Shown one piece after another: positions 2,969-40,796 of a stretch of DNA of 54,801 nucleotides. Each line of letters opens with the position of its first letter. Position 1 is the first letter of the stretch. This stretch comes from Candidatus Amesbacteria bacterium GW2011_GWA1_47_20. GTDB taxonomy: Bacteria > Patescibacteriota > Microgenomatia > CAZETR01 > Amesbacteraceae. Position numbers and translations under genes: made by a program. Under the pieces are notes generated by a model, which was given only the letters and a program-made list of their open reading frames with translations, was not told the origin of the DNA and did no database searches. The stretch is taken from the NCBI GenBank assembly GCA_001002405.1, contig LCOA01000002.1, forward strand, positions 1 to 54,801, given 5' to 3'.

Positions 2969-3735
2969 AATGATCTTTGCCAATATTTAATGTAAGCCAT
3001 GGCGAGAGTGAGGCCGGAAAAGAGGGCGAAGACAAAGCCGGGGTAGCCATCTACCAGCCCCAAGTGACGGAAGTAGATTTTCAAAAAAGTGAGCAGAGGG
3101 AGCAAAATAAGATAATTAAGAGCATTGAGCAAACTAAGCTTTTCGTGGCGGGCTTGCATTTGGGAGGCAGCGAAAGACGAGTAGCGGTTAACGCCGTCTA
3201 AATACTTGGCGAAACTGGTGTCGCGGTAGTGCAGTAAATCGTGCTTAAGATGGCCGACCGGCCCGGTCACCTGCGCCTGCTCGTGCACGTCGGCTGCGGG
3301 AAGACGGCCCATTCCTTTGCGGTACAGGCGGAGGGTAGGATCGGGGTATTGGCCGCCTTTGGTTAAAAAACGAGTAAGAAACCAGTTTTTTCGATTCACC
3401 CAGTAGCCATTGAGTGCTGGGCGCTGAACGCTGAGCGTTGAGCGAATTTCGCTCGAGAGTTCGGGAGACACGACTTCGTCGGCGTCCAACTGAAGTATCC
3501 AGTCCCCGTGGGCCGCGTCGATAGCTATATTTTTGTTGATATGAAAGTTAGCCGGGTTTTCGCGAATAATAACCTTGGCATTATGTTTTTTGGCAATTTG
3601 CACCGTCTGATCCGAAGACTTGCCATCCACAACTACAATTTCGTCAGCGATATCTTTTACCGCCTCTAGACACCGGCCAATATTGTCCTCCTCATTATGG
3701 GTGGCCAGGACGACAGAAAGTTTAGGGGTTTTCAT
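2965..3735 (-). CDS. GT2-family glycosyltransferase (WaaE/KdtX-like subtype)
   Basis: LSVVLATHNEEDNI, VVVDGKSSDQT and QLDADE motifs. Paralogous to 27849-28598 and 29437-30276. ATGA overlap at 3732-3735. Confidence 0.85.
   Translation of the reverse strand: MKTPKLSVVLATHNEEDNIGRCLEAVKDIADEIVVVDGKSSDQTVQIAKKHNAKVIIRENPANFHINKNIAIDAAHGDWILQLDADEVVSPELSSEIRSTLSVQRPALNGYWVNRKNWFLTRFLTKGGQYPDPTLRLYRKGMGRLPAADVHEQAQVTGPVGHLKHDLLHYRDTSFAKYLDGVNRYSSFAASQMQARHEKLSLLNALNYLILLPLLTFLKIYFRHLGLVDGYPGFVFALFSGLTLAMAYIKYWQRSL
3423..3443. repeat. Heptanucleotide tract (GCTGAAC GCTGAGC GTTGAGC) in a GT2 gene
   Basis: Read directly. Encodes STLSVQR. Confidence 0.75.
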
Positions 3736-5408: not shown

Positions 5409-6977
5409 CTAGTTGCTGATTATTTTGAAAGCCGGGCTACTATTTGGAAAATTAATGGTTTTAACTATATTAACACCTACGTCGGGAATGTCTTCGGGAG
5501 CGGCTACGATGAGCGAGGAGTGAATGTCGCTGACTTTGGACCAGGGCGTATCAGCAAAATGGAATTTGGAGTAATCGCGAACAGTGGAGAAATTGTATTT
5601 GTCCCGGAAAGTGAGAGAGTGATGACCTTGGAACTGTTGGGGCGGGTATTTGGAATAAAAGAGGAAAAGAATGTAAGGCTGATCGTACTTGTCGGTAACT
5701 AAGATCTTTTCATACCTGTCCTGAACCGACCCCACGTAAGCTACCAACTCTTTGAAGCCGTACTCCCAGGCGTAAGGATAAGTTTGAGGATAGTGAACGT
5801 AATACTGGTGCAGATATCTAGTTACTTGCCATAAATACACAAATCCCAAGACACAAATTCCAAATAATTTCCAATGTTTTAAAGTTTCAAAAACACCAAC
5901 CGAAATAAGGATAGTTAAGGGAATAACCATGGCGTGAGCGCGCAGGGCGTGGGGGGTTTGAAAAGTGATGGCGGAAGCGAGAGGGGCTACTAATAACCAC
6001 AACCATACCAATTTGGTCTTTGGTCTTTGGTCTTTGGTCCTTAGTAGATAGGCCGCGCCGAGGGCTAGAAAGATAAAATCGGTGAAGTAGAGAAGGCCGG
6101 TTTCGGGAACGCGGTTGCGGGGAATGACGTCGCCGTTGACAAACAGGAAATTGCCGAAGAAATGGTCGGTGTAATTTTCTAGAAATTGAATGGTGTACAG
6201 AACAGGACGGTTGTGCAAAACACGGGATAAGGGCGTGCTCCACCCCGGATGCTGGCCGCGCAGCTCCTTGGCCCGATTGAGAGGACCCTCATCGGCGAGC
6301 AGGCCTACTCCGGAGAGACGGGAAGCGGCATTAGTAGTAACTAGGTTATAGATTAGAGGGATTAGGAGTAAGAAACCAATGACCGAAGCTGTAAAAATGC
6401 GTTTGGGGCGGTAGAAAAGAAATAGACCTAAACCCAGGAGAGGAACAGTGAGGCGAGCAGATTGATAAAAATACATAGACAGCGCAAAGCTCAAAACGCA
6501 AAGCTCAAAACGTTTCTTAAGGAAGAGCCAGACGCCGATAAGCATGAGAGTGGTGGCGACGTTGACCTCCCAGCCGCCGCGGGAGAAATGCAAGTGCCAG
6601 GGGCTGATGGCCAACAGCAGCGCCGCCAGTTGACCAGTTTGCCAGTTGATCAGTTCTTTGGTCAAAAGATATACAAAGAGGACGGCCAGGATGCCGAAGA
6701 GGGCGGAGGGGAGGCGGACGGCGAATTCGGTGAGACCGAATATTTTGATGAAGGGCATGAGCAAGTAGGCGTAACCCGCGGGTTTGAAATCGCCGAAAGA
6801 TTCCAGATTCACCGGCCAAGGATGACCGTGCTCATCCCGACCGGTCAGAAGTAACGAGTAAGCGTTGTAGCCCAGAGCGGCTTCGTCCGCGTTCAAGCCT
6901 GCCGGAAAATCGGCCAGCCGGTAAAGGCGCAAAAAGGCGGCTAAAATTAAGACGAAAATAAGAATTATTTTTTTCAT
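5409..6977 (-). CDS. GT39-like (PMT/ArnT-type, GT-C fold) membrane glycosyltransferase, paralog 1
   Basis: LNADEAALGYNAYSLLLTGRDEHGHPWPVNLESFGDFKPAGYAYL, then ISPWHLHFSRGGWEVN, about 11 TM segments and a C-terminal soluble domain. Confidence 0.8.
   Translation of the reverse strand: MKKIILIFVLILAAFLRLYRLADFPAGLNADEAALGYNAYSLLLTGRDEHGHPWPVNLESFGDFKPAGYAYLLMPFIKIFGLTEFAVRLPSALFGILAVLFVYLLTKELINWQTGQLAALLLAISPWHLHFSRGGWEVNVATTLMLIGVWLFLKKRFELCVLSFALSMYFYQSARLTVPLLGLGLFLFYRPKRIFTASVIGFLLLIPLIYNLVTTNAASRLSGVGLLADEGPLNRAKELRGQHPGWSTPLSRVLHNRPVLYTIQFLENYTDHFFGNFLFVNGDVIPRNRVPETGLLYFTDFIFLALGAAYLLRTKDQRPKTKLVWLWLLVAPLASAITFQTPHALRAHAMVIPLTILISVGVFETLKHWKLFGICVLGFVYLWQVTRYLHQYYVHYPQTYPYAWEYGFKELVAYVGSVQDRYEKILVTDKYDQPYILFLFYSKYPPQQFQGHHSLTFRDKYNFSTVRDYSKFHFADTPWSKVSDIHSSLIVAAPEDIPDVGVNIVKTINFPNSSPAFKIISN
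6013..6040. repeat. Heptanucleotide tandem repeat (TTGGTCT x3 plus TTGGTCC) in GT39-like paralog 1
   Basis: Read directly. Encodes TKDQRPKTK. Confidence 0.9.
6483..6512. repeat. Perfect 14-nt tandem duplication (CGCAAAGCTCAAAA x2) in GT39-like paralog 1
   Basis: Read directly. Encodes FELCVLSFAL. Confidence 0.9.
6626..6657. repeat. Octanucleotide tract (CCAGTTGA CCAGTTTG CCAGTTGA TCAGTTCT) in paralog 1
   Basis: Encodes INWQTGQL. A 27-nt core (6621-6647) is identical to 12628-12654. Confidence 0.85.
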
Positions 6978-8533: not shown

Positions 8534-10001
8534 AAACAATAAAGGCCGGTTGACCATCGAGGAAATTAAATGTGGTTATCTCCCGGCCAGAAATTTTACT
8601 CTCGGGGCTGGTGACAACGAGCGTGTTTGGTTTAAACGTCAGTTGGCCAATTTCCCAATCGTTGACAAAAGTAAATTTATCCAGAGCGTTGACCCAGTAC
8701 CAGTTGGCGTGGTAATCCCATTGCTTGCGGAGTTGAAAATCGGCCGGGTTCCAGGGCCAGAAATAGGCCACAAATTCATGCGGTTCGCCATATTTTTTGG
8801 TAAAGATAATCTGATCGTAATCGGAATAGCGCTGTTTGATAAATTGAACTACTTTAGAGTAACCATATTGCCAAGACTGCGAATAGTTATTACGATAACT
8901 ATTCGCGGATACTAGATAGTAGATAGTAGATATTAGGAGACCCACGAAGAAAAGAGCCTTAACATTACGGCCGAAGCGGTCCAGACCATGAGCGATTAAG
9001 AGCATAGACAGAGGCAGCATAGGAATGGCCCGAAGGACATGAGGCGCATCTCGCGTCAAACTACCGGCAATCGGCGCAAGTAACAGCCATGCCCAGGAAA
9101 TTTTATTCAGCTTTAATAACCCTAGGTAAAAAAAGGGCAAACTGACCAAATAAAGCAGGCCGAAGTTTTGGATGCTGAACTGATAATGATCGCCGCCTTT
9201 GAGGAAGAGAAAGTTGGGAGAGAAGTAACTTAAGTAATTTTGACCGAAACGGTAGAGAAAATAAGTGGCCTTGTTGTACAGCAGCCGGCCCCCAGGACGG
9301 GATTGCAGTTGATCGATTTGGGCAATGGCACCGGAATCCAGGATGGTCAACCAGCTTAGTCTAGCTTGACCGGAAGGAGAGAGAAGTTGGATAACCATGG
9401 GGATAAATAAGAAAGCTGTTAGCAGATAGCTAATAGTCGTTAGCTTGGGACGATGGAGAAAAAGATAGGCGAGTAAAAACAACGGGCTGAAGACGCGGGC
9501 GGAATTGTAAGCCCAGACGGAAAGCCCCAGAAATAAGATGCCCAAATTTGTCTTGCGGACCAGCAAACAGCAAATGCCTATGGCAATAAATAATGCACCC
9601 ACATTGGCTTCCAGAGCAATACGGGATATCCACCAGGTCCAAGGGGAAATGGCGACCAAGACGGCTGAAGTGAGGCCAACGAAGGGAGAAGCCAGCCGCC
9701 AGCCCAAAAGATAGGTTATGATGATGAGTAACGTGCCGAAGACGATTGACGGCAGACGAACGAAAAAGGGAGAAATAGTGGCCAGGTAAACGTAGATGGG
9801 TAATTTGTAGTCTCCAAAGCTTCTGAAAATTGTGGGCAAGATCGTCCCCCACTCGTCCCGACCGGTCTGAAGAAGCGAATACGCGTTGTAACCCAAAGAA
9901 ACTTCGTCCCAATTGAGGCTGGGAGGAAGGAAGTTGCTGGCTACCAGCCGCAGAATCAGGCCGGCCGCCGCAATAAGTAAAAGCCACTTAACGTGAGACA
10001 T
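8523..10001 (-). CDS. GT39-like GT-C membrane glycosyltransferase, paralog 3
   Basis: SLNWDEVSLGYNAYSLLQTGRDEWGTILPTIFRSFGDYKLPIYVYL. ATG 10001. 46-nt overlap with the upstream gene end. Confidence 0.8.
   Translation of the reverse strand: MSHVKWLLLIAAAGLILRLVASNFLPPSLNWDEVSLGYNAYSLLQTGRDEWGTILPTIFRSFGDYKLPIYVYLATISPFFVRLPSIVFGTLLIIITYLLGWRLASPFVGLTSAVLVAISPWTWWISRIALEANVGALFIAIGICCLLVRKTNLGILFLGLSVWAYNSARVFSPLFLLAYLFLHRPKLTTISYLLTAFLFIPMVIQLLSPSGQARLSWLTILDSGAIAQIDQLQSRPGGRLLYNKATYFLYRFGQNYLSYFSPNFLFLKGGDHYQFSIQNFGLLYLVSLPFFYLGLLKLNKISWAWLLLAPIAGSLTRDAPHVLRAIPMLPLSMLLIAHGLDRFGRNVKALFFVGLLISTIYYLVSANSYRNNYSQSWQYGYSKVVQFIKQRYSDYDQIIFTKKYGEPHEFVAYFWPWNPADFQLRKQWDYHANWYWVNALDKFTFVNDWEIGQLTFKPNTLVVTSPESKISGREITTFNFLDGQPAFIVYEK
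8913..8936. repeat. Heptanucleotide tract (TAGATAG TAGATAG TAGATAT TAG) in paralog 3
   Basis: Read directly. Encodes LISTIYYLV. Confidence 0.85.
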
Positions 10002-11455: not shown

Positions 11456-12993
11456 GGGAGTTTTTGGGCGACTTTGATGGCCGGCCGGGAAGAGGGGTAA
11501 TCGATGTGGAAATATTCAGGGAAATCGGGAGAGAAATCTTCGGGTTTACCGATGTACAAGGTGGGGATTGAAACAGAATCTTGGGGGTAAATTACTCCAA
11601 ATCGATATTTACCCAGATAATAGCCGTCAAACTGATCCAGGAATTTAACATTCCGGGGCCAGTTCTGGGAAGCTTTCTGGTACTCTTGTGGGTCGAACTT
11701 GGTATAAAAAGCCACAAAGATATGGGGTTCGGAAAGCGAGCGGCTGAAGCGGACGTCCGAAAACCTGTCCGAAAAAGCCTGCAATCGGGGCATGAGCTCG
11801 CGCCAACCGTAAGACATAGAAGGAGCAATGACATACGGCGAATGATAAAAGTAATCTTCGGCAAAAAATACAAAACTGATAACGTAGGCCCCGAACACCA
11901 GGACCAACCAGCGCCGGGGAAGATGAGTTATGGCGGTAGCCAGAAGAATGATGAGCCAGGGAAGCATGATGACCGCCCGGTTGGCAGCGGCTCCCGGGCC
12001 TTTGGCCAAAGCTGCGGGAAGAGGAGCCAATAGAAGAAGGGCTATGAGAAGCGGGGAAATTTTGGGGCGCCGAATAATTAAATAAGCAAGGAGCGGCAGT
12101 TCAATTAAATAAAGCACTCCCCTGCCCGGCGACATGCCGTAAAAAGGTTCACCAGCACCGGAAGTGAATAGGAAATTGGGGGAAAAATAAGAAATGTAGT
12201 TTTGAGCTAGGATCGAAAAAGAATAAACTAATTTATTAGAAAACACGCGGGCGAATACGTCCGGTAAACCCTGGGCCCGGGCTTCGAAACGGCGAGTGGC
12301 TACCCCTAGCCAATTGTCGGTGGGGCTAAAAATGCTGACGTCGGCCACCCGAGCGGAAACCAAGCCTATGAGCGAAACTACTAGAGGAATAATTAATACA
12401 GGCTTGAATTTGTCCCGGAAATAAACGAACAGAACCACAAGAATCAACGGCAGGATTAACCTGGCTGAGTGATACGAGTAAGCGGCGGCGGTCAGAAACA
12501 GCGCGGAAAGCATGGGATGACTGTCGAGAAAAAAATACAGGCCCAGAGGTAAAAGAAAAGTGGCCAGATTGGCTTCGAATGCCCCGCGAGACATTTGAAT
12601 ATGCCAGGGGTTGATGGCCATCAGCAACGCCGCCAGTTGACCAGTTTGCCAGTTAATCAGTTTTTTGGCCAGAAGATACACAGCCGCGATGGCCAGAATG
12701 CCGAAGATGGCATTAGGCAAGCGGACAGCAAATTCCGTCAGACCGAGAATTTTGACCGATGGGATGGCGAGGAAAGCATACAGAGGCAGTTTGTAATCTC
12801 CAAACGAGCGCAGGTTGGTGAAAAACAGCTGCCACCAGGGGGTGCCCCACTCGTCCCGGCCAGTCTGAAGCAGTGAGTAGGCGTTGTAGCCGAAAGCCGC
12901 TTCATCAGGTGTGAATCCGGCAGGCAAGCGAGCTAGCCAAAGCAAACGGGCAAGTGATCCGATAACCAGGGCCACAATCAGTAAATGGCGCAT
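11452..12993 (-). CDS. GT39-like GT-C membrane glycosyltransferase, paralog 4 (operon head)
   Basis: GFTPDEAAFGYNAYSLLQTGRDEWGTPWWQLFFTNLRSFGDYKLPLYAFL. First gene of the long minus-strand operon; a -10 box lies 8 nt upstream of the ATG. Confidence 0.8.
   Translation of the reverse strand: MRHLLIVALVIGSLARLLWLARLPAGFTPDEAAFGYNAYSLLQTGRDEWGTPWWQLFFTNLRSFGDYKLPLYAFLAIPSVKILGLTEFAVRLPNAIFGILAIAAVYLLAKKLINWQTGQLAALLMAINPWHIQMSRGAFEANLATFLLPLGLYFFLDSHPMLSALFLTAAAYSYHSARLILPLILVVLFVYFRDKFKPVLIIPLVVSLIGLVSARVADVSIFSPTDNWLGVATRRFEARAQGLPDVFARVFSNKLVYSFSILAQNYISYFSPNFLFTSGAGEPFYGMSPGRGVLYLIELPLLAYLIIRRPKISPLLIALLLLAPLPAALAKGPGAAANRAVIMLPWLIILLATAITHLPRRWLVLVFGAYVISFVFFAEDYFYHSPYVIAPSMSYGWRELMPRLQAFSDRFSDVRFSRSLSEPHIFVAFYTKFDPQEYQKASQNWPRNVKFLDQFDGYYLGKYRFGVIYPQDSVSIPTLYIGKPEDFSPDFPEYFHIDYPSSRPAIKVAQKLP
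12633..12664. repeat. Octanucleotide tract (CCAGTTGA CCAGTTTG CCAGTTAA TCAGTTTT) in paralog 4
   Basis: Same tract and same protein position as 6626-6657. Confidence 0.85.
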
Positions 12994-17212: not shown

Positions 17213-18362
17213 ACCGCCATGATAACCAAATAAAGGAGGCCAGCGCAAGTAAAATGAGAAGTTGGATGTTGAGGGTTGAGGAGAGCCAGGTGACCAAGAT
17301 GGGCCAACGGGGGTACCACCAGTTGTGATATAAGTTGAGCCAGTGAAAAAGGGAGAGATAAATAAATGCCGGTAACAGGCGGCGGTCCCGGGCCAACCAG
17401 AAAACTAAAAAGACCAGAGCTGGCAACAGGTAGCGCTCGTGCATGCGGGTGAGGAAAAAGAAAGCGGACATGGTAATTAGAGCAGCGATGGGAAAAACAG
17501 AAAAGCGTTTACGGGTAAAAACGAAAAGCAGGAGGGCGGCAAAAAGCACATATCCCCAGAGGCGGTAATTGGCGTCGGGAATTTTGCCCAAACCCATGGT
17601 TAAGGCCCAGAAATTAAATGCGTGATCTACCACGTAATCCGAACCCGAACCGGTTTGGATGATGTGCCAGTACGTGGCCAGGGGCGGAGTGGCAAACGGT
17701 AAAAATGCCAGTAGAAACATAATCAACCCAACGGCCGCGGATTCGAGACTTTGAGCAATGCCGAAACGGCGGTAAAAAAATAGAACATACAAAGGAATAA
17801 AAATTATGGAAGACTGTTTAGTAAGCAGAGCCAGAGTAAAAGAAACGGCCGAAAGGAACGGGCGACGGGTGAGGAAAGCGGCTACCAGAAAAAATACCGG
17901 CACGGACTCGATTTGGCCCCAGGAGGCACTGTTGTAAAAAATAGCCGGATTAAAAAGAATCAGGGCGGCCAACCAGCGTTTTTTCGTAGCAGTATATACC
18001 AGCCAAGCAAGACCTATATCTGCGGTCATGGCCCAAATTTTGTGAAACGCCGGCTGGGTGTCTTGGTCTTGCAGCCACCAAATGATTTGCGAGGGGAAAA
18101 GGGGGTATTTAAGATTTAGGTTCCATGCCGTGCGAGATACAGTATCGAAAAGACCTTGGGACAGGGTGAAAAAAAACAAAGTAACCGGGGGATAAGTGGG
18201 AGTGAGAGTACCGTAGCGGGACATGAACTCCCGCTGATAGATCCCTGCCGGACCAAGAGAAAGAATGTCTCTACCCCAAGAAACATGGTTGTTGACATCA
18301 CCAGAGTAAATTTGGGTACTAAGGAATAATCTAAGAACCAGACCGAGGATAAAAAGTGTCAT
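17199..18362 (-). CDS. Polytopic GT-C-like membrane protein (Gpi18/ALG-like loop)
   Basis: SGDVNNHVSWGRDILSLGPAGIY...TYPPVTLFFF loop followed by many TM segments. ATG 18362 forms an ATGA overlap with the upstream stop; the track start 18458 adds a non-hydrophobic extension. Confidence 0.45.
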   Translation of the reverse strand: MTLFILGLVLRLFLSTQIYSGDVNNHVSWGRDILSLGPAGIYQREFMSRYGTLTPTYPPVTLFFFTLSQGLFDTVSRTAWNLNLKYPLFPSQIIWWLQDQDTQPAFHKIWAMTADIGLAWLVYTATKKRWLAALILFNPAIFYNSASWGQIESVPVFFLVAAFLTRRPFLSAVSFTLALLTKQSSIIFIPLYVLFFYRRFGIAQSLESAAVGLIMFLLAFLPFATPPLATYWHIIQTGSGSDYVVDHAFNFWALTMGLGKIPDANYRLWGYVLFAALLLFVFTRKRFSVFPIAALITMSAFFFLTRMHERYLLPALVFLVFWLARDRRLLPAFIYLSLFHWLNLYHNWWYPRWPILVTWLSSTLNIQLLILLALASFIWLSWRYAKR

Positions 18363-19960
18363 TTTCTGGCAACCAGATACAAAATAGGCTGGTTGTAGGC
18401 GTTGGTGCTGGTAAACAGGACTTGGATATTGTCGGGAGGAGTACGGCGCCAATCCCAATCGCCGGCCACATTGTCCCGCTGGGAAATAACATACAAACTG
18501 TTGGGAAGCAAAGATTCCATCCAGTTTGATTTATTGAAGTTGCCAAAGAAGTATTTACCGTCTAAAGAAAATCCGTCGTAATTGGGAACAATGTTGACCT
18601 GAGGCTGATCCAGGGTGAATTGGCGATGAAATTTGGCCGGTGAGTAACTCGTCCAAAACAGGAAGCGAATTAAAGACGGCTCATAAGTGTTGTTGATAAA
18701 GACGCGGGAGTAATTGGGGGCCAGACGAGCCAGCTCGGTCATAGCCTGCTGAAATCCCACATTCCACCACCGCCAGGAAGATTTGGCGTAATGGGCAACG
18801 TAGTAATGGGCCAGGTACACAAAATAAGAAATAAAGAATACAAGGAATAAGATATTAAGAACCCGAGGTAATTTGCGGGTAACTAATACTACGCCGGCAC
18901 CGGTAGCGACAGCTAAGGGTGGAAGCATTAAAAACAAGCGAGTGGCGTGGTAGCCCCCGTCGGAAGTAAGAGCGGCTGGGAGCGGGGCTAAAAACAACCA
19001 AGTCAACCACAACCATTGCTTACGGGAAGCCAGATACCACAGGCCGATTAGCACGAAAGGGAAAGAGATGGGTAAAAGCTCGCCGACGATCTGCATGCTC
19101 TGGCGGTAATCGGGGTCGCCGCGAATGAATAAAAAGTCAGTGGAAAACGGCCGGAGATAATTAGCTACGACAGCAGAAGCGTAAGTTTCGAGTTTGTTGT
19201 GCCATAAACGCCCGTCTTCGGCCTGGAGAAGGTTTAAGTTTTTGAAAATTTCCGGATTGGCAAAAATGCTTAATCCCCCGAAGCGGCCCCGGGCGGGACC
19301 AGAGATAATATTAAAAATTAAGGGAACAAGAAGTAAAGAAAAAAGAAGTAAGGAAATAAGTTTGGGGCGAACGCGGGTAAGAAAAATGAGTGTCACAAAC
19401 CATAAAGGAACAAAAAGGACGGCGGTGCTGTAGGTGTACATCGAAAGGGCAAAGGGCAAAGGACAAAGGGCAAAACGACGTTTGAGAAAGAGCAAAGTGC
19501 CAAGCATGACCAGGTCGAGCATGAAAACTACTTCGTAAGCGGCCCGCGAGTAGTAGATGTGCCAGGGAGTCACCGCCAAAACCAGAGAGCAGAAGAGCGA
19601 GAGAGTATAAGAGCGAGAGATATGATAAACGAGGAGAAATAAAATGAGCGACCCAAGAGTACCAAAAATAACTTCAGGCAAACGGACGCCCCAGACGGAA
19701 TTTCCCAGGGCGGCGATGGTAGGAACTGTGGCGTACATGAGAAGTGGGGCGCGCCATTCCGCCAGAGAATGAATGTAAGTAGGCAAGATCTGGCCATATA
19801 AGTCCCTTCCGGTTTGCAGAAGTGACCGGGCCTGGTATCCCACGTCAACCTCATCACCAAACAATTCCGGGGGGGCGATCTGCAGCAGCCCAACACGTAA
19901 ACCTAGGCTAAGTGCTAAAATGAGGCTTAGAATCCAACTCATGCTATCTGTCATTATCAT
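18359..19960 (-). CDS. GT39-like GT-C membrane glycosyltransferase, paralog 6 (operon head)
   Basis: PPELFGDEVDVGYQARSLLQTGRDLYGQILPTYIHSLAEWRAPLLMY plus VTPWHIYYSRAAYEV. Possible starts at 19960, 19954 or 19942 (MSWILSL...). Confidence 0.75.
   Translation of the reverse strand: MIMTDSMSWILSLILALSLGLRVGLLQIAPPELFGDEVDVGYQARSLLQTGRDLYGQILPTYIHSLAEWRAPLLMYATVPTIAALGNSVWGVRLPEVIFGTLGSLILFLLVYHISRSYTLSLFCSLVLAVTPWHIYYSRAAYEVVFMLDLVMLGTLLFLKRRFALCPLPFALSMYTYSTAVLFVPLWFVTLIFLTRVRPKLISLLLFSLLLVPLIFNIISGPARGRFGGLSIFANPEIFKNLNLLQAEDGRLWHNKLETYASAVVANYLRPFSTDFLFIRGDPDYRQSMQIVGELLPISFPFVLIGLWYLASRKQWLWLTWLFLAPLPAALTSDGGYHATRLFLMLPPLAVATGAGVVLVTRKLPRVLNILFLVFFISYFVYLAHYYVAHYAKSSWRWWNVGFQQAMTELARLAPNYSRVFINNTYEPSLIRFLFWTSYSPAKFHRQFTLDQPQVNIVPNYDGFSLDGKYFFGNFNKSNWMESLLPNSLYVISQRDNVAGDWDWRRTPPDNIQVLFTSTNAYNQPILYLVARK
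19444..19478. repeat. Heptanucleotide tract (AAAGGGC AAAGGGC AAAGGAC AAAGGGC AAAACGA) in paralog 6
   Basis: Encodes FALCPLPFAL. Same alignment position as the 14-nt duplication at 6483-6512. Confidence 0.85.
19928..19933 (+). promoter_or_regulatory. -10-like box for the GT2 gene at 19941
   Basis: TAGAAT, N7, ATG 19941. It lies inside the N-terminal codons of the divergent gene. Confidence 0.3.
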
Positions 19961-37363: not shown

Positions 37364-38084
37364 ATGCGTTGGTAAGGGCGCGCCAGCGGACAAGAAATAA
37401 TTCAGTAACTCCGGCAATGGCGTCGCGGACAAAACTCACCCGGCGGGTTTCCTGATGCCGCCAGGAAACAGGAACCTCCGTTATTTTGTAGCCCAGTTTG
37501 CGCCCGAGATACAACATCTCCAAATCAAAGCCAGGATTGACCGCGGGGCCAGACACAACACCGGGAACGTGGACCTTGTTCATGACGGCAAAAATTTTGC
37601 GGGCAGCGAGTTTGTTAAAAGCCTTAAAGCCGCATTGAGTGTCCCAAAATGGCAGACGGAGAATGAGAGTGCGCATAATAATCATCCCAAAAGCTAAAAT
37701 TTTTCTAAAAACCGGGGCGTTGGGACGACCGGAACGGGAACCGATGGCAATGTCTGTTCCAAATTTAAAAAGCGGAATAAATTTGTCCAGCTCGGAAATG
37801 GGCGTGGCCTGATCCATATCGGTAAAGAGAATAATATCCCCGGCGGCAGCCAGAGCACCGGTGATGACCGTGGCGGCTTTGCCCTGGTGAGGGTTGTCTA
37901 TAATTCTGATAGGGTATTTTTGCAATAAAGAGAGAGTGGCATCCGAGGAGCCGTCGTTGACGGCGATTATCTCCCAGGAATATTTCTGTTTTTTAAGATA
38001 TTCAAGAGCTACATCCAAAGATCCTCGCCGGAGGTTGTCTTCTTCGTCATAGGCCGGAATAATAACAGATAAATATGGTTTCAT
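37335..38084 (-). CDS. Polyprenyl-phosphate glycosyltransferase (GT2, ALG5/DPM1/GtrB-like), tandem paralog
   Basis: LSVIIPAYDEEDNL, AVNDGSSDAT, FTDMDQATPISE and DTQCGFKAFNK. ATGA overlap at 38081-38084. Confidence 0.8.
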   Translation of the reverse strand: MKPYLSVIIPAYDEEDNLRRGSLDVALEYLKKQKYSWEIIAVNDGSSDATLSLLQKYPIRIIDNPHQGKAATVITGALAAAGDIILFTDMDQATPISELDKFIPLFKFGTDIAIGSRSGRPNAPVFRKILAFGMIIMRTLILRLPFWDTQCGFKAFNKLAARKIFAVMNKVHVPGVVSGPAVNPGFDLEMLYLGRKLGYKITEVPVSWRHQETRRVSFVRDAIAGVTELFLVRWRALTNAYALRNHTQL

Positions 38085-39586
38085 TCGGTTTTAACCACTA
38101 AATAAGCGGGGACGCGATTGGCAAAGTATACCTTGTCTAGAATCTGATGGGAAGGGATGTCCACTTCCGGCAGGCTCCAAGTAGAACCAATAAGTAAATT
38201 CCCAAGAGTAGCTTTTTCTATTTTCCAATCAATGTGTCTAAACTCGAAATTTGCAAATCCCCGGGGCGTGATTGAATTCCAATAGTCCTGGGGGCGAATT
38301 CGGCCGTAGAACAGCAAATAAATGTCCGGAACTCCTTTGATGGTGGGGCCGTCTTTGCCAAAATCCGGGTCGATGACGATGGTGGAATATTTATCACGAT
38401 TCGCCAGGGCAACGCGGGCAATTTGAGCCGAGGGATCGAAACTGTAATCGGATTTTTGCATGACAGAATGCAGCAGATAATAATCCGCCACAAAGACAAA
38501 GTTGACCAGATAGGCCAAGAGAATCAGATGCTTGAATTTAGGCCAGGCCATTTGCAAACCCACAGCAATAATAATGACCAAGGGTAATACCAAAGCCAGA
38601 GAACGAATGGGGTGATAATCGTTAAGGGTGAGACTAGCTGGCAAAGGGGAGATAACAATCCACCACCACAACGCCTTCGGGAAAATCCGGCGACGAATGA
38701 CGGTTATCAGACCAACGACAAATAACGGCAACTCGATTAAATAGGCCACGCCGGCATCCACCAACTGATTTAAAGTTAAATCCAATCCCCGGAAAAATAA
38801 AAACGAGGGGTCGAAGTACTGCAAGTAGCGGTTGACCACCGACCAGACAACCAGCCAGGCGCGGGACAGATCTATGCGGCCCAGGCTTTGAGAAATGGCG
38901 GTATTGATTTCCACATCGCCCGTCACCAAAGTTTGGCCGATGCGGGATTGCCCGCCAACTAAAAGTAAGGGTACGAGTAAGAGGAGAACTAAGAACGAGG
39001 CTTTGGGCAGGGATTTTTTGTAAATGGCCCACAGACCCAAACCCAACAAGGGGGCTAAGAGTTTGGGCGTGTGATAGGTGTACATGGACAAGACCAAGAG
39101 GAAGGTCCCCAAAACCGGGCGGCGGAAATTTAAGAGAGAATAAAAAGCGGCCAGTAACAGCGTGAAAGCCACATTCACCTCATAACTGCCCCGGGTAAAA
39201 CGGATGTGCCACGGGGATATAGCTAGCAACAGTCCGGCCAGTAATGCCAGATCCCGACGGCGGGTAATGCGGTAAGTTACCAAGTAGGTTAAGAGAACGG
39301 CTAAGACGCTAAAGACGGCCGAGGGGAAACGCACGGAAAATTCGGTCAGGCCAAAAACGGCCACGCTGGGTACAGTCAGATACAGGTAGACGGGCGGCTT
39401 GAAATCTCCCAAAGATTGAAAAACCAAGGGCATAGTTTTTTGGTACTGGTCCCGACCAGAGAGCAAAAGGGCATAGGCGTTGTAACCGATAGACACTTCA
39501 TCTACGTTTAAAAACGGCGGGTAACTCCCCAGCAAGCCCAGACGAAGAACGGCGGCGATAATAATCAGGCTAATTAGTCGGTACAT
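38081..39586 (-). CDS. GT39-like GT-C membrane glycosyltransferase, paralog 7
   Basis: FLNVDEVSIGYNAYALLLSGRDQYQKTMPLVFQSLGDFKPPVYLYL and ISPWHIRFTRGSYEVN. ATG 39586 (MYRLISL...) preferred over the track start 39676. Confidence 0.8.
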   Translation of the reverse strand: MYRLISLIIIAAVLRLGLLGSYPPFLNVDEVSIGYNAYALLLSGRDQYQKTMPLVFQSLGDFKPPVYLYLTVPSVAVFGLTEFSVRFPSAVFSVLAVLLTYLVTYRITRRRDLALLAGLLLAISPWHIRFTRGSYEVNVAFTLLLAAFYSLLNFRRPVLGTFLLVLSMYTYHTPKLLAPLLGLGLWAIYKKSLPKASFLVLLLLVPLLLVGGQSRIGQTLVTGDVEINTAISQSLGRIDLSRAWLVVWSVVNRYLQYFDPSFLFFRGLDLTLNQLVDAGVAYLIELPLFVVGLITVIRRRIFPKALWWWIVISPLPASLTLNDYHPIRSLALVLPLVIIIAVGLQMAWPKFKHLILLAYLVNFVFVADYYLLHSVMQKSDYSFDPSAQIARVALANRDKYSTIVIDPDFGKDGPTIKGVPDIYLLFYGRIRPQDYWNSITPRGFANFEFRHIDWKIEKATLGNLLIGSTWSLPEVDIPSHQILDKVYFANRVPAYLVVKTE

Positions 39587-40796
39587 AGTAATGCAGACGG
39601 AATAATACAGGAGTACCAAATGGATCATAAACCACGGGCTCAAAGGTATCTTTGGGCTGAAGCGGGTGTTTGCCAAGCCATTTTGCGGAGACCAAAGAAA
39701 TGGGGCCGGGTGACTGAAGGCGAGGATCGTCGGGAGAGACGACTTCGATAAGGCCTATGCGGCGGATGAAATCCCGGAAATGATATGAATTTTTAGAAAG
39801 AGACGGAGGAACCGGACGCAGATGGAAGGCCAAATATGGCCCTGGGTCGGGATAGACGTCGTCGGCCAAAAGTACTGGGGAACTGGCTAGATTTATCACT
39901 TCTGAAAGTCCCCACCCGCGATCAACCCAGGTACGATGGGGTAAGAAATGGGTGGAGAAATAAGCCATGGGCAAAAGTAAGACCAGGCCCAAATAAACGG
40001 CGACGCGGGGAAGGTAACGGCCGGCCATAAGTATGAGCGACAGGTAAAACGGAAATGGCGTGATACCAAATCCGGCTAAGAGCAGAGACGCGATAGCCAG
40101 GACGGCAATGAGTTTAGACGGGCGGCGGAAAAGAAAAGGCAGGAGAATGATAAGCAAGGGGGGGATTTTCTGAGCCTTATCGCCAAAGCCAAAAAGAAAT
40201 GAGGGGTTGAGAGCCGAAAAAATATTTTGCAAGTAAACCAAAACAAAGTAAAGTTTGTTGTGCAATATTTTGGCTAAAAGTGGAAAGGCGGAGTGTTCCC
40301 CCCGGAGAGAATTGATGGTGGTAATTAAGCTTTGGGAGACAAAAGACGGCTTAAGAGCCAAAGCGGCGGCGATGGTTAAAATAACGGCCGGAATGATAAA
40401 CTTTTTTCTTTTGAGGGCGGCGATGAGTAGACTTAGAAACAAGACAACTAATTTGGCATCGTAATTACCAGGCCAAAGAAAGGCCGGGGTAGCCAAAAAA
40501 ACTAATCCTAATGTAGGCGAAGAAAAAGCAACCGCGAGAAGCATGGCAGGTAAAAGCCAGACGAGAAACTCAAAACCCAATACCCCAAATGGGACAAACA
40601 GGTAACTGGTAAGGGGAAATTGGTAACCGGCGGGACCATGGAAAAGATAGGGCAAGACGTTGCCTACTTCATCCCGGCCGAAACGCAGGAGCGTCCAGGC
40701 TCGGTAAGAATGCAAAAAATAATCGGTGGTTTGACCTATGTTTAGCAGGAGGTAAAGTTTAATTACAATTAGAATTAGGAGTGTCAATTTTTTCAT
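39570..40796 (-). CDS. Degenerate GT39-like paralog (first acidic motif eroded)
   Basis: GQTTDYFLHSYRAWTLLRFGRDEVGNVLPYLF aligns to WDEAALGYNAYSLLLTGRDE with WDE replaced by TDY. ATG 40796 forms an ATGA overlap with the upstream stop. Confidence 0.5.
   Translation of the reverse strand: MKKLTLLILIVIKLYLLLNIGQTTDYFLHSYRAWTLLRFGRDEVGNVLPYLFHGPAGYQFPLTSYLFVPFGVLGFEFLVWLLPAMLLAVAFSSPTLGLVFLATPAFLWPGNYDAKLVVLFLSLLIAALKRKKFIIPAVILTIAAALALKPSFVSQSLITTINSLRGEHSAFPLLAKILHNKLYFVLVYLQNIFSALNPSFLFGFGDKAQKIPPLLIILLPFLFRRPSKLIAVLAIASLLLAGFGITPFPFYLSLILMAGRYLPRVAVYLGLVLLLPMAYFSTHFLPHRTWVDRGWGLSEVINLASSPVLLADDVYPDPGPYLAFHLRPVPPSLSKNSYHFRDFIRRIGLIEVVSPDDPRLQSPGPISLVSAKWLGKHPLQPKDTFEPVVYDPFGTPVLFRLHYYVPTN

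Follow-up and report, generated by a model that had tools for sequence, protein, structure and literature searches.

The window analysed here, 54,801 nucleotides of contig LCOA01000002.1 from Candidatus Amesbacteria bacterium GW2011_GWA1_47_20 (genome G000 below), contains a tandem array of paralogous genes for membrane glycosyltransferases of the GT-C fold, an arrangement that is conserved across the family. Two of these genes, P1 and P6, carry a tract of tandem heptamers within a predicted transmembrane helix, and these two tracts, together with the genome-wide class of arrays to which they belong, are the subject of this study. The organism is a groundwater bacterium of the Microgenomates, in the Candidate Phyla Radiation (CPR), and its genome of 0.69 Mb, in 37 contigs, is 92% complete. 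The two genes and their tracts are as follows.

5409..6977, minus strand: P1, a GT-C fold membrane glycosyltransferase (PMT_2 / GT39-like) of 522 amino acids, assigned by PF13231, an AlphaFold2 (AF2) model and Foldseek.
18359..19960, minus strand: P6, a paralogous GT-C glycosyltransferase of 533 amino acids, assigned by homology to P1 (E = 6.8e-59).
6475..6512, minus strand: heptamer tract of P1, four units and a degenerate fifth unit, TGTCTAT, encoding RFELCVLSFALSM in helix 157-170.
19440..19478, minus strand: heptamer tract of P6, encoding RFALCPLPFALSM.

P1 matches Pfam family PF13231 at 39.2 bits (cut-off 26.1), and a Pfam search with P6 gives no match. A search of PDB sequences with the P1 profile likewise returned no match, and a fold search was needed instead. 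The AF2 model of P1, built on 62 homologues (predicted local distance difference test, pLDDT, 84.4; predicted template modelling score, pTM, 0.87), was matched by Foldseek with probability 1.00 to STT3/PglB/AglB, ArnT (5f15, query TM-score, TMq, 0.55), ALG9, and Pmt4, all of which are GT-C fold glycosyltransferases that use lipid-linked sugars. An acidic motif in the first extracytoplasmic loop, D31 and E32, is invariant in seven paralogs and the 62 homologues and has a putative catalytic role. The helix that contains the tract comes after a KKR turn and directly precedes the conserved motif SMY-YQS-R; a related motif, LSMYTY, lies next to the same helix in the paralog at 38081-39676. Among 120 homologues the residue entropy of the tract is 2.30 bits (91st percentile), compared with a mean of 1.17 for the protein and 0.54 for the following motif, SMYFYQSAR, and the site appears to be a sequence-tolerant transmembrane helix. 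In the tree of the family, support is 100/100 for the P1 clade and likewise for the P6 clade, and P6 falls together with a paralog on contig C8; judged from this topology, P1 and P6 are not sister paralogs.

On the coding strand, the units of P1 read TTTGAGC TTTGCGT TTTGAGC TTTGCGC (6509..6482), preceded by CGT and followed by TGTCTAT, and those of P6 read TTTGCCC TTTGTCC TTTGCCC TTTGCCC TTTCGAT (19474..19440), again preceded by CGT. The first-pass annotation had described a perfect 14-nt repeat in P1 and a 7-nt tract in P6 as different repeats at homologous positions. Both repeats are real: at 6483-6512, CGCAAAGCTCAAAA is repeated 2.1 times without a mismatch (Tandem Repeats Finder, TRF, score 60), and at 19444-19474, AAAGGGC is repeated 4.4 times with 91% matches. 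The peptides given for them were also correct, and in both protein and codon alignments the tracts fall in identical columns with zero indel, as had been proposed. Where that description fails is in calling the repeats different, as each consists of four TTTGNNN units in the same phase, the 14-mer of P1 being two heptamer variants in alternation, so that a single array in 7-nt register with a common TTTG core is present in both genes. Of 41 possible lag-7 self-matches at the site, P1 has 19 and P6 has 25, compared with 6-17 in the other seven paralogs and a null of 10.8 +/- 3.3; among the nine paralogs of the genome the lag-7 signal is thus confined to P1 and P6, and the earlier statement that the others are non-repetitive there was borne out. 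An assembly artefact is ruled out by the recurrence of the tracts in independent metagenome-assembled genomes (MAGs) and in seven assemblies from different samples.

The position, length, and register of the tract are constant in P1 and P6 of all four genomes of the genus (G000 to G003). The unit sequences differ between species, and several units change together, synonymous positions included. Two principal forms and three intermediate states were found.

E form, units GAGC/GCGT: P1 of G000 and G001; P6 of G001.
A form, units GCCC/GCAC: P1 of G002 and G003; P6 of G000, G002, and G003.
Intermediate P1 orthologue P0008, units 1-4: GCTC/GCGT/GAGT/GCGC.
Intermediate P1 orthologue P0013, units 1-4: GCCT/GCGT/GAGC/GCCT.
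Intermediate P1 orthologue P0012, units 1-4: GAGC/GTAC/GAGC/GCGC.

The distribution of these forms disagrees with the gene trees. Because intermediate states occur in genus-level P1 orthologues, the change from one form to another appears to proceed unit by unit, and at the protein level the replacements of E by A and of S by P are linked, both following from one DNA change in units 1 and 3. The A form reaches perfection in P6 of G002, which is (TTTGCAC)x4, and in every A form the Leu codon behind unit 4 is CTT, a synonymous choice that lengthens the period. Units resemble one another more closely within a genome than across genomes, with identities of 0.83-0.90 vs 0.71-0.79 for P1 and 0.77-0.92 vs 0.54-0.75 for P6, and units at homologous positions resemble one another no more than units at other positions do. 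In other genera, the same site of P1 holds heptamer arrays of other units, among them TGTATCT, CTAATCT, ATTTTGA, CTTGCCA-type, and TTTGCAC.

The likeness between the two tracts stands out from the divergence of the genes that carry them. Over the whole gene, P1 and P6 have a DNA identity of 0.44-0.46, compared with 0.61-0.85 in the tract, which is the best or second-best 60-nt window of the pair in four of four genomes. Where the two proteins have the same residue, the codon is also the same at up to 13 of 16 sites in the tract vs 36% elsewhere (Fisher p = 6.5e-4), a codon match that is limited to P1-P6 pairs of the same form, cross-form pairs being at background. The core of P6 in G001 differs from that of P1 in G000 at 1 of 30 nt, and P1 of G002 differs from P6 of G000 at 4 of 54 nt including flanks, although these flanks are conserved as protein and their synonymous matches do not reach significance by themselves. 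Vertical descent of the tract since the duplication that produced P1 and P6 is ruled out, since the two are, on the tree, not sisters and are 45% identical elsewhere; for the same reason the identity of the tracts must be due either to exchange after the duplication or to homogenisation in parallel. The simplest and most likely account of their near-identity is a short ectopic conversion between the arrays. Parallel homogenisation from a similar starting sequence is the alternative, which the unit-by-unit intermediates keep in play because, as they show, each array has undergone much of its change internally. Two origins had been offered for the tracts in the first-pass annotation, and each survives in part. 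An ancestral repeat may have been remodelled, but the DNA identity must be younger than the old duplication, whereas a hotspot for repeat formation agrees with the heptamer arrays of other units that P1 orthologues across the family carry at the site, and only to that extent.

The tracts are two members of a class that runs through the genome. Short tandem arrays number 198, compared with 14-25 in triplet-block shuffles, and include 57 arrays of period 7 and 34 of period 14 (shuffles, 0-4). Exact runs amount to 31 at lag 7 and 22 at lag 14, compared with 0 in the shuffled genomes, which rules out an origin by chance. The copy number has its mode at 4-5 units (28-34 nt); after rounding, 42 arrays have four units, 18 have five, and 5 have three. 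About 70 of 93 arrays (~75%) lie in frame within long open reading frames (ORFs) of many unrelated kinds, and ~25% are intergenic, which is above the small share of the genome that intergenic DNA occupies; no positional rule of the arrays relative to genes was seen. The coding arrays bear a further mark. In 19 of the 49 coding arrays of period 7, the consensus unit holds a stop triplet on the coding strand, and in 8 coding arrays the sole departure from perfection is a base that abolishes an in-frame stop (for example, C13:2568-2600, C20:4840-4869, and C14:19059-19088), as in AAATTAG AAATTAG AAATTcG AAATTAG. The same logic explains a deviation in P1, where unit 2 has C in place of the A of unit 1: TTTGAGC at that point would read CTT TGA and place a TGA in frame. 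Stop patching of this kind indicates a strong DNA-level homogenising force that is checked by selection.

Collectively, these results lead us to favor, with moderate confidence, a reading in which the P1 and P6 tracts are a heptamer microsatellite resident in coding sequence, which is homogenised as DNA while selection maintains the reading frame and which the paralogs share through short conversion. A strand under synthesis, during replication or repair, would mispair one or two units out of register, copy a few bases, and then realign, the outcome being a templated conversion of one unit by another. MutS and MutL were looked for in this genome and neither was found; without them, mismatches arising from unit-to-unit copying would escape correction by that pathway. 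Selection would then discard those outcomes that shift the frame or create an in-frame stop, and what survived would be homogenisation at constant length. The sharing between P1 and P6 would require an ectopic conversion patch of ~30-55 nt.

Several observations weigh against this reading. The test for concerted evolution over 8 arrays is marginal (Wilcoxon p = 0.055), and support for a P1-P6 conversion that reaches the unique flanks is weak, the flanks being conserved as protein too. Identical unit classes occur at unrelated loci in 76 pairs vs 4.6 expected (10.4 under a 70%-AT null), a recurrence that it leaves unexplained because purely local homogenisation does not predict it. Loss of MutS was rejected as a sufficient cause, since 39 of the 41 genomes in the class are without MutS and yet array density among them ranges over 0-16 per 100 kb. 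The sampled population is nearly clonal and gives little power to detect rare length variants. Finally, the misalignment mechanism has been deduced from patterns and not observed directly.

The arrays are unevenly distributed among relatives. Those of period 7 or 14 occur at 11-16 per 100 kb in the four genomes of the genus, at 16 in G004, 12 in G006, 10 in G027, and 7 each in G020 and G015, and at 0-3 in G007, G010, G016, G018, G019, G032, and G036. We regard it as possible, if doubtful, that a lineage-specific active DNA process imposes arrays of 4-5 heptamers on tolerant stretches of coding sequence, rewrites them at constant length, and copies them between similar sites. Such a process could stem from an unusual property of the polymerase for replication or repair, or be the work of an enzyme, for example a RAYT-like Y1 protein, and would not be ordinary background slippage. 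A replacement mechanism like that of diversity-generating retroelements (DGRs) is unlikely, because no reverse transcriptase (PF00078) was found. G000 encodes four diverged RAYT-like Y1 transposase (Y1_Tnp) paralogs of 208-253 amino acids with HxH and Y motifs (C26:5268-6026, C7:18678-19418, C30:5627-6298, and C34:2744-3367), several of which are flanked by hairpins, such as the tandem CGCACAAGGTCTCTCCCTGTGCG beside the C26 copy. As enzymes driving the arrays, the Y1 transposases are a lead only.

An unlikely alternative is that the arrays are small mobile or copied elements, in which case heptamer arrays of ~30 nt would have spread between loci, perhaps by means of the RAYT-like Y1 proteins, and P1 and P6 would each have received a copy. 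The recurrence of unit classes at unrelated loci (AAATTAG at 9, AAATTCT at 5, and CTCAAAR, which resembles the E form of P1, at 3) is what such a history would leave, as are the differences between sister species at orthologous sites, where an array may be present or missing or have a hairpin in its place, and the number of Y1 genes in relatives loosely tracks array density. There are exceptions to this last trend, however, G018 having four Y1 genes and few arrays. Moreover, loci that share a unit class have unrelated flanks and no common termini, which rules out that the dispersed families are parts of longer elements. Sequences like the E form of P1 were seen at just three loci. The tract itself is no insertion, being as long as the matching segment of the non-repetitive paralogs and without indel relative to orthologues, although other sites do show insertions. 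Its intermediates change unit by unit and not as whole tracts, and an incoming array with an in-frame stop would truncate its host gene, yet stop-patched arrays are common. Adjacency to hairpins is weak overall, with a stem of >=9 bp next to 7.5% of arrays vs 1.8% of random sites (Mann-Whitney p = 0.25), and no hairpin adjoins the P1 or the P6 tract.

We consider it quite improbable that the tracts form a contingency locus, a slipped-strand on/off switch of surface glycosyltransferase paralogs that would vary the glycan, for instance against phage. The first-pass annotation had noted that unit slippage would frameshift the gene, and this is so, since 7 is not divisible by 3: a slip of +-7 or +-14 nt would end P1 prematurely, at residue 159-205 of its 522, and P6 at residue 186-218 of its 533. 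The missing MutS and MutL would also suit a switch, as would the nature of the genes, since redundant surface-glycan paralogs are of a kind that is phase-variable in Haemophilus and Neisseria (PMC2651432). The frameshift switch that was implied is nevertheless unsupported in every assembly examined. The tracts have just 4 units, whereas the known phase-variable heptanucleotide tracts have 6-38 and the number differs between strains (PMC2651432). No unit-number or frameshift variant occurs in 26 orthologues of P1 and P6 read as DNA, no length variant of the tract occurs among genus-level P1 homologues, and nearly all of the 120 listed P1 homologues are full length. About 19 P1 homologues have an identity of 71% or more. 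There is likewise no variation of the tract across seven independent assemblies of the same strain population (0-1 single-nucleotide polymorphisms, SNPs, apart), and 24 contigs encode the identical protein. Arrays of the same kind also lie in frame in many unrelated genes genome-wide. Between species, the tract alters a small number of residues in the helix, with no evidence of switch action.

That selection acts on the protein, for a hydrophobic helix of the pattern F-x-L-C-x-L-x-F-A-L, with the DNA period as a by-product, seems to us very improbable. The helix does stand beside a conserved motif common to several paralogs, and T-rich heptamers code for helix-compatible residues in all three frames. 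The residues of the tract, however, are among the least conserved in the protein, the changes of E to A and S to P are coupled solely through the DNA change that they share, and synonymous sites co-vary with the form of the tract. Furthermore, seven other paralogs have the same helix without periodicity, and like arrays are found in intergenic DNA. Least credible is a nucleic-acid signal, in which a heptamer-reading protein of the cold-shock type, with an oligonucleotide/oligosaccharide-binding (OB) fold, would bind single-stranded DNA or mRNA and might pause translation or replication at the helix: CspB binds direct heptamer repeats, one protein to each, with weak specificity for T-rich units (reviewed in PMC4679880), and array length is rather uniform at 4-5 units, but units vary widely from one array to another and, at a single site, from one species to another, and the arrays follow no positional rule relative to genes.

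Our preferred reading, that of a resident microsatellite homogenised in frame, sets the tracts apart from known systems in several respects. Over-representation of heptanucleotide simple sequence repeats (SSRs) in bacteria was described by Mrazek et al. 2007, as summarised in PMC4679880 and PMC4692102; known cases include GGGNATC in Xanthomonas and Nostoc, TAACTGA in Beggiatoaceae, and the short tandemly repeated repetitive (STRR) heptamers of Calothrix. Polymerase slippage in 7-nt steps has been proposed as their mechanism. A preference of heptanucleotide repeats for about four units has been published (PMC4692102). The arrays described here resemble these SSRs in that there are many 7-nt tandem arrays per genome, above expectation, of about four units and lineage-specific. 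The published repeats are mainly intergenic, usually have one dominant unit per genome, and comprise 2-26 copies, whereas here ~75% are in frame in ORFs and dozens of units are used; species do not differ in array length, units change in step, stops that would fall in frame have been patched out, and two paralogs have one array in common. With the contingency SSRs of Haemophilus and Neisseria, the tracts share an intragenic, non-triplet unit in surface-glycan genes, where a slip would truncate the product; those loci have 6-38 heptamers and on/off alleles between strains (PMC2651432), in contrast to 4 units and no assembly variant here.

The tracts also recall concerted evolution by ectopic conversion, in that an island of local DNA identity, synonymous sites included, lies between otherwise diverged genes; unlike in the usual case, the patch of ~30-55 nt coincides with a microsatellite and the intermediates show much change within each array. 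The elements of Rickettsia known as palindromic elements are in-frame elements, and small dispersed repeats are said to lie nested in heptamer arrays of Nostoc, reportedly a finding of Elhai and colleagues from 2008. As in those systems, very short repeats are tolerated here at permissive coding sites, and relatives have hairpin modules at these sites; the P1/P6 tract differs in having no defined ends, length change, or adjacent hairpin. A search of the literature on heptamer repeats in CPR/Patescibacteria returned nothing relevant, and no paper was found on in-frame, fixed-length, co-varying heptamer arrays in CPR genomes.

Further arrays lie in P1 and in the neighboring paralogs.

6625..6655, minus strand: 8-nt array of the type AACTGGCA, x3.8, encoding INWQTGQLAA in P1.
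12632..12663, minus strand: the same 8-nt array in paralog P5 (11452-12993).
6012..6039, minus strand: perfect TTTGGTC x4 (as read on the plus strand), in a P1 loop, TKDQRPKTK.
5837..5863, minus strand: 14-nt array, x1.9, in another P1 helix, LFGICVLGFVYL.
8908..8936, minus strand: GATAGTA x4.1 in paralog P3, LLISTIYYLVS.

Only in this genome do P1 and P5 share a nearly identical patch of ~40 nt, which encodes INWQTGQLAAL. Sister-species orthologues of P5 have unrelated sequence or an insertion there: 11 amino acids of (AATTAAA)n in G001, 16 amino acids with a hairpin, CCCCTCTCCTTT..AAAGGAGAGGGG, in G002, and neither insertion in G003; the INWQTGQLAAL peptide is also found, patchily, in the distant P1 homologues P0003, P0031, P0036, and P0044. 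Orthologues of the 6012..6039 array in G001 and G003 have units that have drifted or co-vary. The GATAGTA array of P3 adjoins a hairpin with a 13-bp stem (GCGAATAGTTATTACGATAACTATTCGC), the whole of 8863-8936 being coding. In a GT2 gene at 3411-3444, a TGAGCGC x4.9 array is replaced in G002 by a 14-nt repeat, TTCATGGTTGATGA x2, and in G003 by a hairpin, CACCTGAAAGG..CCTTTCAGGTG, of other length. Within P1, one metagenome assembly of the same strain (L091; Joint Genome Institute, JGI, 3300025121) is without 12 nt at 6713-6724, equivalent to 4 residues of the conserved AVRLPSA segment, which may be a genuine deletion allele that keeps the frame or a fault of the assembly.

Some intergenic arrays of G000 are composite. 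At C26:3090-3280, C12:2380-2444, and C37:4900-4972, arrays of AAATYCT, AAATTTT, and GTTTAGR follow one another, partly as long AT-rich imperfect hairpins and with the recurring junction GAATTTGTTTAG. The intergenic CTAAACC / GTTTAGG arrays at C12:22944-22963 and C24:20891-20923 have the heptamer of plant-type telomeres, which is probably a coincidence.

Heptamers have long been recognised as the commonest long microsatellites of bacteria. Arrays that lie within genes, as here, are unusually informative, as selection on frame and stops exposes the underlying DNA process, the signs of which here are fixed length, units changing in step, patch bases that remove stops, and stepwise intermediates. 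Arrays of this genome favor four units although they lack G-tracts, which argues against G-quadruplex formation as a general explanation of that preference. The P1/P6 pair, in turn, provides a clean natural experiment that sets homogenisation within an array against exchange between genes. For annotation, the case is a warning that sequence alone is insufficient for calling such tracts phase-variation switches. If an active process of rewriting were indeed at work in this lineage, it would constitute a previously undescribed diversification of short protein segments in ultra-small bacteria, surface-glycan enzymes included.

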